Shown: positions 58,753 through 59,520 of the stretch, in pieces
Layout: the number at the start of each line of letters is the position of its first letter
How positions within the stretch are numbered: the first letter of the stretch is position 1
DNA from: Acidobacteriota bacterium
GTDB taxonomy: Bacteria; Acidobacteriota; Thermoanaerobaculia; UBA5066
NCBI GenBank assembly: GCA_016716715.1
Contig: JADJVE010000006.1
Span: 129,259-193,258, forward strand
Direction: 5' to 3'
Length of the DNA stretch: 64,000 nucleotides
Program-made: the position numbers and the translations under genes
The notes under the pieces: model-generated
Told to the model about the DNA's origin: nothing
Seen by the model: the letters and a program-made list of their open reading frames with translations, nothing else
The model's database searches: none

Positions 58753-59520
58753 ATGAAGAAACACCTCATCAAGTCCGGCGTCGTCGCCCTCGCGCTCGTG
58801 CTCGGGACCGTCCTGAGCGTGCCGGCCGCGGCCCAGACGCTCATGCCCCAGGTCTCCGTTCTCAAGGGCGAGAAGAATTTCTGGAGCGGCTACGACCCCG
58901 TCAACGTGGACGGCACCGTCAACGTCGTGATCGAGATCGCCGCGGGCACGACCGCGAAGTACCAGGTCGACCTCAAGTCCGGCATGATCGAGCTCGAGCA
59001 GAAGAACGGCGCCCCGCGGTACGTGCAGTACCTCGGCTACCCGTGCAACTACGGCAACATCCCGCGCTCCGTCCTCCTGAAGTCCAAGGGCGGCGACGGC
59101 GACGCCGTGGACGCGCTCGTCCTCGGGCCGTCGGTCCCGACGGGTTCTGTCGTGCGCGGCCGCGCGATCGGGATGCTCAGCCTCATGGACACGGGCGAGA
59201 AGGACGACAAGGTCGTCGTCGTCATGGAGAACACGCCGTTCGCCTCGGTGCGCAGCATCGAGGAGCTGGACCGGAAGTTCCCCGGCGTGACCACGATCCT
59301 CCAGACCTGGATGACGTCGTACAAGGGCCGCGACAAGGACGGAAAGCTCTATCTGAGCTCACCGGGCTTCAGGGGCCGCGCCGAGACGATCAAGTTCATC
59401 GGCGACGCCGTCCTCGACTTCGAGAAATCCGTCACGACGGACGCCGACCGGCGCCCGCTCGACGAGAAGGGCAACCCCTATCTCTACCGCTGGCCGGGCG
59501 CGAAGAACGTCGGCGAGTAA
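58753..59520 (+). CDS. ppa: Family I inorganic pyrophosphatase with an N-terminal signal peptide (predicted extracytoplasmic)
   Basis: AGGAG RBS. Signal peptide MKKHLIKSGVVALALVLGTVLSVPAAAQT. PPase motifs: VNVVIEIAAGTTAKYQVD, YPCNYGNIPRS..GDGDAVDALVLG, MDTGEKDDKVVVV. Confidence 0.85.
   Translation: MKKHLIKSGVVALALVLGTVLSVPAAAQTLMPQVSVLKGEKNFWSGYDPVNVDGTVNVVIEIAAGTTAKYQVDLKSGMIELEQKNGAPRYVQYLGYPCNYGNIPRSVLLKSKGGDGDAVDALVLGPSVPTGSVVRGRAIGMLSLMDTGEKDDKVVVVMENTPFASVRSIEELDRKFPGVTTILQTWMTSYKGRDKDGKLYLSSPGFRGRAETIKFIGDAVLDFEKSVTTDADRRPLDEKGNPYLYRWPGAKNVGE

Follow-up and report, generated by a model that had tools for sequence, protein, structure and literature searches.

A family I inorganic pyrophosphatase with a predicted export signal, encoded in a conserved multi-gene cassette of Acidobacteriota and other bacteria

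Family I inorganic pyrophosphatases (PPases) are textbook cytoplasmic housekeeping enzymes. In eukaryotes, the family I fold also functions beyond the cytosol once it is equipped with a targeting sequence (PDB 5cuy among others), with organellar PPases, acidocalcisomal VSP1 and a mite allergen, 'secreted inorganic pyrophosphatase', as precedents. Phrase searches of the searchable literature returned no description of an exported, periplasmic or secreted inorganic PPase from bacteria, none of an exported TTM protein and nothing relevant to an OprO-linked periplasmic PPase. Exported forms are unmentioned in a 2024 review of microbial PPases, and according to a recent paper (PMC13318637) the metabolism of polyphosphate (polyP) by microbes is regarded as confined to cycling within the cell. 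A close parallel for the use of external condensed phosphate is that of Pseudomonas aeruginosa, in which OprO/OprP act with periplasmic alkaline phosphatase in phosphate-starved cells so that PPi and polyphosphate can be taken up.

The locus compared here with these systems lies within a 64,000-nucleotide stretch of DNA (the window) from an Acidobacteriota bacterium; coordinates are positions in the window, and the genes and sites of the cassette and of its regulators are on the + strand. A first-pass annotation had identified the open reading frame at 58753–59520 (255 aa; MBK9063789.1) as a family I PPase, an identity borne out by a match to Pfam PF00719 (Pyrophosphatase, residues 58–220, 95.5 bits versus a cut-off of 23.5), by the best PDB sequence matches, which were PPases throughout with yeast-type enzymes among them, and by the active-site residues. 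The motifs quoted in that annotation were also found, i.e., VVIEIAAGTTAKY, YPCNYG and a metal site that reads DGDAVD. The protein shares with E. coli Ppa and yeast IPP1 the Pfam domain, the DxDxxD metal site and 13 of the 14 canonical polar active-site residues (E20, K29, the R43 equivalent, Y51, Y55, D65, D67, D70, D97, D102, K104, Y141 and K142 in E. coli numbering), and its segment KNGAPRYVQYLGYP ahead of YPxNYG resembles that of yeast-type PPases. The DxDxxD signature and the second Asp/Lys cluster (D115, D117, D120, D146, D151 and K153, corresponding to E. coli D65, D67, D70, D97, D102 and K104) are family-invariant, and the invariance of 13 of 14 residues across the family argues for a PPase-type active site that is predicted to work. 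At the position of E. coli E31, the window PPase has Gln71 and its closest relatives have Met, whereas most of the family has Glu, so that kinetics or metal use may differ.

Compared with E. coli Ppa and yeast IPP1, the window PPase has, in addition to this Gln and a predicted extracytoplasmic location, a signal peptide of the cleavable type, a conserved N-terminal extension of approximately 25 aa on the mature protein that is absent from canonical PPases, a family-specific insert (LLKSKGG) that precedes DGDAVD and a conserved C-terminal extension of approximately 30 aa (TDADRRPLDEKGNPYLYRWPGAKNVGE). Scores against the NCBIfam housekeeping Ppa equivalogs were 66.4 bits (NF002317), 53 bits (NF001886) and 51.9 bits (NF002578), as opposed to cut-offs of 200–247, and by these sequence comparisons the window PPase is a member of a distinct subfamily, other than the housekeeping Ppa equivalog. 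When all six frames of the window were scanned for motifs of family I PPases, family II PPases and H+-PPases, the gene at 58753–59520 was the sole match, and tblastn with a Geothrix H+-PPase fragment as query gave zero matches in the window or in 80 loci. The cultured relative Geothrix oryzae also has the cassette, and a distinct gene, 9 kb from it, encodes a membrane H+-PPase (PF03030).

The proposal of a classical signal peptide on this PPase was examined by a rule that called for a positive n-region, an uncharged h-region 12 or more residues long and small side chains at -3 and -1. The rule was passed by the window PPase and by 120 of 120 closest homologues. In the window PPase, the N-terminus (MKKHLIKSGVVALALVLGTVLSVPAAA followed by QT) is made up of MKKHLIK, with a net positive charge, of SGVVALALVLGTVLSV, which provides 12 or more uncharged residues, and of PAAA before QT, with Ala at both -3 and -1. 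Among 67 homologues with less than 80% mature identity, identity was 17% in the signal region as opposed to 74% in the mature part. Together, these two results indicate that the signal is more than a chance resemblance and support the prediction of a Sec/SPase I-type signal, a targeting feature that is conserved while its sequence is divergent. The predicted signal peptide comprises 27 codons (58753–58833) with SPase I cleavage between AAA and QT, which would leave a mature PPase of 228 aa and 24.9 kDa (58834–59520).

Relatives of the window PPase were sought in a homologue library of 1.84 billion representatives, and the nearest 150 clusters at 50% identity were classified. SPI-like or lipoprotein-like N-termini were noted for 118 of the 150 cluster representatives, and the rest, which received no such call, were mostly fragments or classifier misses; thus, the N-termini of nearly all of these clusters appear to be signal peptides or lipoprotein signals. 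At 50% identity, 145 clusters had an E value of 1e-30 or better, and bit scores were at least 122 for the nearest 150 clusters and at most 60.5 for solved PPases. The window gene is one member of a large clade of PPases for which export is predicted, and of a multi-gene cassette. Some members of the clade are fusion proteins, with partners that include beta-propeller phytase (P0435, Phytase PF02333), a Phytase-like domain (P0380) and the ParB-like nuclease domain ParBc_2 (P0414 and P0454). Secreted phytases, histidine phosphatases and extracellular nucleases are thus fused to or encoded beside members of the clade, and these fusions and histidine phosphatase neighbours would link it to extracytoplasmic phosphorus scavenging. 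In contrast with these enzymes, the window PPase is a single-domain protein, and its TTM-type partners suggest that the substrates are phosphoanhydrides rather than phosphoesters.

The upstream gene (56975–58729), separated by a 23-nt gap from the PPase gene, encodes a two-domain protein of 584 aa with its own signal peptide (MKTRAVPRLLLAALVAAAGMAVA followed by AD). The protein consists of an N-domain (approximately residues 30–320), an Ala/Pro-rich linker, a C-domain (approximately residues 325–540) and an invariant C-terminal tail, KAAxNDDPS. No Pfam match was obtained, even at an E value of 10, and hence no match to Pfam CYTH. In Foldseek comparisons of the N-domain model (pLDDT above 90) with the PDB, the top 35 matches were all to CYTH/TTM structures, with E values down to 1e-6, a probability of 1.0 for nearly all and target TM-scores of approximately 0.5–0.6 against single-domain targets. 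The first-pass annotation of this neighbour as a secreted CYTH protein is consistent with the signal peptide and the modelled fold. According to the model the N-domain is TTM-fold; it is not counted here as a proven CYTH enzyme. Strand 1 failed a test for the ExExK motif, reading G50-R51-E52-Y53-K54 with an invariant Gly in place of the first Glu, and from this and the missing Pfam CYTH match, the domain may bind rather than cleave its ligand. Compared with known TTMs (NeuTTM NE1496, CthTTM, AtTTM3 and YgiF), with which it shares the fold, the domain is predicted to be exported, is approximately 290 aa in length instead of approximately 150–200, carries G-R-E-Y-K and has a fold-orphan domain fused to it or encoded beside it. 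That C-domain was confidently modelled yet had no structural neighbour or recognisable fold; Pfam and PDB sequence searches with it were empty, its match to NCBIfam XopV/AopV was weak (29 bits against a 220-bit cut-off), and a profile search retrieved only unnamed or inconsistently named proteins. In other lineages the 584-aa protein is split in two, with signal peptides on both halves, and in one homologue the TTM N-domain is fused to a histidine phosphatase domain. The adjoining genes for PPase and TTM/CYTH-fold protein were noted in 48 related loci. A second TTM paralogue in Desulfovibrio falkowii is real; one in locus L012 was dropped from consideration because the match was not significant.

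Four further genes follow the PPase gene and, as described below, appear to form a second operon. The first (59801–61246) encodes an outer-membrane phosphate-selective porin of the OprO/OprP family (Pfam Porin_O_P, 107.5 bits versus 20.9) with the signal peptide MKKSLVTPLLLALLAAPVMA followed by QE. The second (61349–61942) encodes a cytoplasmic protein of approximately 198 aa that is conserved in the cassette across phyla; its assignment as a CYTH protein was not adopted, as Pfam and PDB profile searches were empty and hhalign against the CYTH neighbour gave a probability of 0.2. That neighbour (61971–62444) is a cytoplasmic CYTH/TTM protein (Pfam CYTH, 56.6 bits versus 23.2), homologous to NE1496 of Nitrosomonas europaea, with an intact and invariant EIERK (ExExK) motif of the kind present in known TTMs and with matches to PDB entries 3typ and 2fbl (E approximately 1e-17). 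The last gene (62506–64000, running past the end of the window) encodes a DASS/SLC13-type sodium-coupled anion symporter (Na_sulph_symp, 198.5 bits), which scored 187.7 bits against TIGR00785, below the cut-off of 198.6 bits. DASS carriers as a group transport many anions. NE1496 itself is reportedly a specific inorganic triphosphatase.

Upstream of the 584-aa gene are genes for a cytoplasmic sensor histidine kinase (54041–55504; Pfam PAS_4, PAS_3, HisKA and HATPase_c) and an NtrC-type sigma-54-dependent response regulator (55497–56843; Response_reg, Sigma54_activat and HTH_8 by Pfam and NCBIfam). The start of the former is approximate, as its open reading frame opens at 53633 and homologue matches begin at about residue 137. 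A Fur-family gene lies just upstream (53098–53526), outside the conserved cassette. Sigma-54-type -24/-12 elements were found 19 nt 5' of the ATG of the 584-aa gene (TGGCTTGGGCCTTGCA, 56941–56956) and 5' of the porin operon (TGGCTTGGGCTTTGC, 59720–59734), with TGGC at -24, TTGC at -12, correct spacing and an adjacent gene for an enhancer-binding protein. The two elements have a 15-mer in common (0.01 expected). The palindrome CCGCAC-N5-GTGCGG, a candidate activator-binding site, occurs in two exact copies, one approximately 90 nt 5' of the first promoter (56852–56868) and the other ahead of the porin operon (59617–59633), compared with 0.77 expected in the window at one mismatch or less. A generic sigma-54 consensus was not enriched over the whole window (8 found versus 8.9 expected), so that the case rests solely on the particular element that is duplicated and on its conservation; a sigma-70 promoter scan of the region found nothing. 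The kinase and regulator genes stay beside the cassette in Acidobacteriota loci, in which equivalent sigma-54-type elements were noted with the palindrome approximately 90–100 nt 5' of each. The duplicated element and palindrome before both operons and their conservation in related loci thus define a predicted regulon. The strong intrinsic terminator that had been reported after the PPase gene was located at 59552–59593, 3' of position 59520, with a 12-bp stem (9 G-C pairs), an 8-nt loop and a T8 run.

Linkage of the genes for the TTM protein, PPase, 198-aa protein, CYTH protein and DASS carrier was evident in Acidobacteriota, Burkholderiales, Lysobacter, Desulfovibrio and Parasutterella, and cultured hosts of the cassette include, besides Geothrix oryzae, Desulfovibrio falkowii and Desulfovibrio sp. 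1188_IL3213. The phosphate porin was present only in Acidobacteriota versions, which additionally have the kinase/sigma-54 regulator pair and the two conserved pairs of promoter and palindrome. An exported histidine phosphatase (His_Phos_1) is added in cassettes of Holophagaceae and Geothrix (L019 and L081). Regulators across cassettes were of the sigma-54 or LysR type and no Pho system was evident; a phosphate-starvation role of the cassette therefore stays unsupported.

From the domain identities, export signals, gene linkage and conserved regulatory DNA described above, we infer the following for the cleavage and localisation of the PPase and for the enzyme activities, substrates and direction of transport. 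In the reading we prefer, to which we assign a probability of roughly 0.6, the window gene encodes a Sec-exported family I PPase that is cleaved after Ala27 and is active in the periplasm, within a sigma-54 phosphate-scavenging regulon. The PPase gene would follow that of the exported TTM protein in a two-gene operon under sigma-54 control, and a second operon of the same regulon would supply a phosphate/pyrophosphate-type porin, the 198-aa protein, a NeuTTM-like cytoplasmic triphosphatase and the DASS symporter. External pyrophosphate, tripolyphosphate (PPPi) and short polyphosphate would enter via the porin, condensed phosphates would be shortened to PPi and Pi by the exported TTM protein together with its partner domain, and the exported PPase would convert PPi to 2 Pi. 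Pi, or residual PPi or PPPi, would then be taken up by the DASS carrier and imported PPPi would be cleaved by the cytoplasmic TTM. Periplasmic breakdown of exogenous PPPi or polyP to PPi and then to Pi is thus the likely role of the cassette. The need for TTM enzymes in both periplasm and cytoplasm is a puzzle for this mechanism. As with OprO/OprP of P. aeruginosa, a Porin_O_P channel appears to be co-regulated with predicted periplasmic phosphate-releasing enzymes, and the proposed logic is the same, i.e., condensed phosphate enters the periplasm and is hydrolysed there. In contrast with P. aeruginosa, the place of alkaline phosphatase would be taken by two putative hydrolases, the exported family I PPase and the TTM-fold protein, and the regulation of cassettes appears to involve sigma-54 or LysR. 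Compared with the targeted eukaryotic PPases, the window PPase belongs to a bacterial clade with predicted Sec- or lipoprotein-type export and has a conserved cassette of its own.

Other readings differ from this one in where the PPase would be found or in what it would do. An in-frame ATG at 58843 would allow translation from Met31 (MPQVSVLKGEK...) and hence an ordinary cytoplasmic PPase with a mis-called start. This start was rejected and the reading is exceedingly improbable, given that a Shine-Dalgarno sequence (GAGGAG, 58737–58742) is situated 10 nt 5' of the upstream ATG and no such element precedes Met31, that GC3 is of the coding type in codons 1–30 (0.97, compared with 0.96 in the remainder of the gene) and that Met occupies the position of Met31 in just 14 of 120 homologues. 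Both the n/h/c organisation of the N-terminus, kept in all 120 homologues, and the N-terminal extension that the mature region has over canonical PPases favour the upstream ATG as well. It seems quite unlikely that the PPase keeps an uncleaved signal anchor, which would hold it on the periplasmic face of the inner membrane, or that the PPase is secreted to the medium or vesicles. Many members of the clade are lipoproteins, and so membrane-tethered, whereas h-regions in the family are short (approximately 12–20 residues) and in 120 of 120 homologues lead into small residues at -3 and -1; the co-regulated porin suggests that substrate reaches the periplasm.

Altered function of an exported protein was also considered. 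A shift in substrate to tripolyphosphate, polyP, nucleotides or inositol pyrophosphates, or a role as a mere binding subunit for the TTM protein, is suggested by Gln or Met at the E31 equivalent in the subclade of the window PPase, by the family-specific insert and C-terminal extension, by scores well under the Ppa equivalog cut-offs and by the phytase fusions in the clade; moreover, much of the cellular PPPase activity of E. coli is reportedly due to Ppa. We consider this unlikely in view of the family-invariant residues, which include all Asp metal ligands and the Lys, Arg and Tyr phosphate ligands. Very unlikely, in our estimate, is a cassette that does not serve phosphorus nutrition and instead frees metals from PPi or polyP chelates, of which Fe(III)-pyrophosphate is an example, or guards the envelope against chelators. 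Such a role would suit control by a cytoplasmic PAS kinase and sigma-54 activator, or by LysR, with no evident Pho system, as well as the nearby Fur-family gene and hosts such as Geothrix, Rhodoferax and Desulfovibrio, genera that include iron- or sulfate-reducing members. However, the phosphate-selective porin, anion symporter, phosphatases and phytase fusions fit the uptake of released phosphate, and the Fur-family gene falls outside the conserved cassette.

Returning to the Sec-exported, periplasmic PPase, the cassette may represent an undescribed, laterally spread extracytoplasmic pathway that catabolises condensed inorganic phosphate (polyP or PPPi to PPi to Pi), a proposal that is quite possible and is put forward tentatively. 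Such a pathway would combine exported forms of two enzyme families that are considered cytoplasmic, the family I PPase and the TTM, with an exported domain of new fold, and would be completed by a DASS carrier dedicated to it and by a regulator that responds to the substrate. Tripolyphosphate is derived from sources such as detergents and food additives. A periplasmic TTM and PPase route would provide a concrete mechanism, testable in the cultured hosts, for bacterial use of environmental PPi, tripolyphosphate and polyP, with relevance to phosphorus cycling in soils, to wastewater treatment and to the gut. If true, the pathway would account for the use of external pyrophosphate, tripolyphosphate and polyphosphate by diverse bacteria of soil, wastewater and the gut.

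The open reading frame at 58753-59520 (+) encodes a 255-aa protein that was recognised as a family I inorganic pyrophosphatase (PPase) in the first-pass annotation, in agreement with a Pfam match of residues 58-220 to PF00719 (Pyrophosphatase; 95.5 bits, gathering score 23.5) and with PDB sequence matches that were inorganic pyrophosphatases in 63 of 63 cases, the best being yeast-type and plant enzymes (E ~1e-15). In a clean alignment (32% identity) to E. coli Ppa, residues E20, K29, Y51, Y55, D65, D67, D70, D97, D102, K104, Y141 and K142 of the latter corresponded to E61, K69, Y96, Y100, D115, D117, D120, D146, D151, K153, Y190 and K191, respectively, and the counterpart of yeast R78 was the Arg of a yeast-like KNGAPRY segment. 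The exception was codon 71 (58963-58965), which specifies Gln where E. coli and yeast have the metal-site residues E31 and E58. At this position, the sole variable one of the active site, the nearest Thermoanaerobaculia relatives have Met and most of the family has Glu, with Ala or Asp elsewhere. Scores against NCBIfam equivalog models of housekeeping Ppa (52-66 bits) were far below the cut-offs (200-247) despite the PF00719 match and thus, as judged from sequence, the protein is a true family I domain of a distinct subfamily and no equivalog of the housekeeping enzyme. The subfamily is set apart by an LLKSKGG insert ahead of DGDAVD and by an invariant C-terminal extension of about 30 aa. PPase-type activity has probably been retained.

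The signal peptide proposed for this protein was likewise borne out, and on sequence evidence the first-pass reading is supported. The N-terminus reads MKKHLIK, SGVVALALVLGTVLSV and PAAA followed by QT, lacks a twin-arginine motif, and has a rule-based predicted cleavage site between Ala27 and Gln28 that would leave a mature protein of 228 aa and 24.9 kDa. Each of the 120 best homologues (251-265 aa) conformed to a simple tripartite rule that calls for a net positive n-region, 12 or more consecutive uncharged residues and small residues at -3 and -1. In the 67 homologues whose mature identity is below 80%, identity was 17% over the signal region as opposed to 74% over the mature region, the pattern expected of a targeting peptide. 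The alternative that the start was mis-called and that translation begins at Met31 (MPQVSV) was rejected, since a Shine-Dalgarno element (GAGGAG, 10 nt 5' of the ATG at 58753) precedes only the upstream start, with nothing similar ahead of the Met31 ATG, since GC3 is of the coding type upstream (0.97 in codons 1-30 versus 0.96 in the rest of the gene) and since just 14 of 120 homologues have Met where Met31 stands. The estimated probability that the PPase is exported is about 0.9.

When 1.84 billion cluster representatives were searched exhaustively with HMMER, 145 clusters were returned at E <=1e-30. By a crude classifier, N-termini of the SPI-like or lipobox type were present in 118 of the 150 best representatives, the remainder being mostly fragments or visible classifier misses, and the top score among solved canonical PPases was 60.5 bits versus at least 122 bits for these 150 clusters. 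More distant members (36-49% identity), likewise with signal or lipoprotein N-termini, were noted in a one-genome-per-species scan in Planctomycetota, Saprospiraceae, Algoriphagus, Calditrichaceae and others. The public record (MBK9063789.1) is annotated just as "inorganic diphosphatase", and a literature phrase search for secreted or periplasmic inorganic PPase returned eukaryotic cases only. No exported family I enzyme is mentioned in a 2024 review of microbial PPases, no exported TTM was found in the literature search, and microbial polyP metabolism is considered intracellular in a 2026 paper (PMC13318637).

The gene immediately upstream (56975-58729), separated from that of the PPase by 23 nt, encodes a protein with its own signal peptide, the secreted CYTH neighbour of the first-pass annotation. 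Pfam gave no CYTH match for this TTM protein; the model of its N-domain (residues ~30-320) had pLDDT >90, and its top 35 Foldseek PDB matches were all CYTH/TTM, among them GBAA_1210, thiamine triphosphatase, AtTTM3, VTC4, YgiF and class IV adenylyl cyclases. Strand 1 reads G-R-E-Y-K, not ExExK, and the C-terminal end carries an invariant KAAxNDDPS tail. In Burkholderiales, Desulfovibrio, Parasutterella and Geothrix, separate genes encode the two domains and both products carry signal peptides; the window protein is thus, by this comparison, a fusion of two exported partners. In one homologue, the TTM domain is fused to a histidine phosphatase domain. Next to the cassette of Desulfovibrio falkowii, on the opposite strand, lies another secreted paralogue of the TTM-like N-domain protein (L042:3984-4919 (-); 34% identity, E 8e-45).

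The strong intrinsic terminator noted after the PPase gene was located at 59552-59583 plus a T8 run. It is followed by a Porin_O_P outer-membrane porin (Pfam) with an export signal, a conserved 198-aa protein (61349-61942), a CYTH protein (61971-62444) with intact EIERK that matches NE1496 (PDB 2fbl and 3typ), and a DASS/Na_sulph_symp permease that extends past the window edge. No similarity of the 198-aa protein to CYTH or any other family was found by Pfam, PDB profile search or hhalign; its strands with alternating charged residues (PRWEWRTF, ETYF, NAKVRDG) are reminiscent of a tunnel enzyme. Genes for signal peptidase I (Peptidase_S26; 51796-53064) and a Fur-family regulator (53098-53526), directly 5' of the kinase gene, lie outside the conserved cassette.

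Near-identical sigma-54-type elements, TGGCTTGGGC(C/T)TTGC, occur at 56941-56956 and 59720-59734 (chance expectation 0.01), and a palindrome, CCGCAC-N5-GTGCGG, at 56852-56868 and 59617-59633, about 90-100 nt upstream of each, so that one pair stands ahead of each of two operons. An equivalent pair precedes the TTM-PPase operon in Acidobacteriota loci with the kinase and regulator, and also the porin operon in the closest relatives, while loci without kinase and regulator lack it. This arrangement supports a single regulon under the adjacent NtrC-type regulator. The kinase contains PAS domains; judged by its domain content, it would have no membrane segment and so would sense a cytoplasmic signal.

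In a tblastn survey of window proteins against 80 loci, the TTM protein lay directly upstream of the PPase in 48 loci with that flank present, and the 198-aa protein, CYTH and DASS were close by in Thermoanaerobaculia, Holophagales, Burkholderiales/Rhodocyclaceae, Lysobacter, Desulfovibrio (cultured D. falkowii among them) and Parasutterella. PPase identity across these phyla (48-91%) suggests lateral spread of the cassette. Among the 80 loci, the kinase, sigma-54 regulator and porin accompanied it in Acidobacteriota only; in Burkholderiales and Desulfovibrio, LysR-type regulators stood in place of the kinase and sigma-54 pair, and one Burkholderiales locus held a SulP-family permease fragment (genes at L012:874-1779 (-), L012:6295-7146 and L042:11118-12044 (-)). 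Holophagaceae and Geothrix cassettes add, between PPase and porin, exported products, namely a histidine phosphatase (His_Phos_1) and an sCache_2 protein (L019:10823-11835; L081:11728-13574). The Geothrix insert (L081) also encodes an exported, weakly matching Zn_dep_PLPC (P1-nuclease/PLC-like) protein. Cultured Geothrix oryzae has the entire set in its complete genome (AP027079.1), where a separate membrane H+-PPase (PF03030, 819 aa; L081:1-1217 (-)) lies about 9 kb away; neither the window nor the flanks of the remaining 80 loci contained such a gene.

The sequences show a PPase-type active site, export signals on four products (PPase, TTM protein, its partner domain and porin), tight linkage across phyla to a DASS carrier and to a cytoplasmic enzyme of the NeuTTM kind, and a shared sigma-54 regulon. 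A role in condensed-phosphate scavenging is a somewhat better than even prospect. External PPi, PPPi or short polyP would enter via the porin and be converted to PPi and Pi by the exported TTM protein, to which the orphan domain may contribute; the exported PPase would finish hydrolysis, the DASS carrier would take in Pi or residual condensed phosphate, and the cytoplasmic TTM (CYTH) would split imported PPPi. NE1496 is reportedly a specific PPPase, E. coli Ppa itself is said to hydrolyse PPPi, OprO of P. aeruginosa is pyrophosphate-selective, and Pho87, Pho90 and Pho91, which carry phosphate in yeast, are of the DASS type. Weak points are the replacement of E31 by Gln or Met, a partial ExExK motif in the TTM protein, two components that could not be assigned a function and the lack of evident Pho control. 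The working scheme would be that of the pseudomonad OprO/alkaline-phosphatase arrangement, with other enzymes as the hydrolases. Exported-clade PPase domains elsewhere have as fusion partners a beta-propeller phytase (PF02333), a phytase-like domain (PF13449) or a nuclease of the ParB-like type, or occur in tandem, with up to four PPase stretches in one protein of 1320 aa (multidomain representatives P0380, P0435, P0414, P0454, P0360, P0402, P0463 and P0502), and the phytase and nuclease partners suggest that what the clade has in common is the scavenging of phosphorus outside the cytoplasm.
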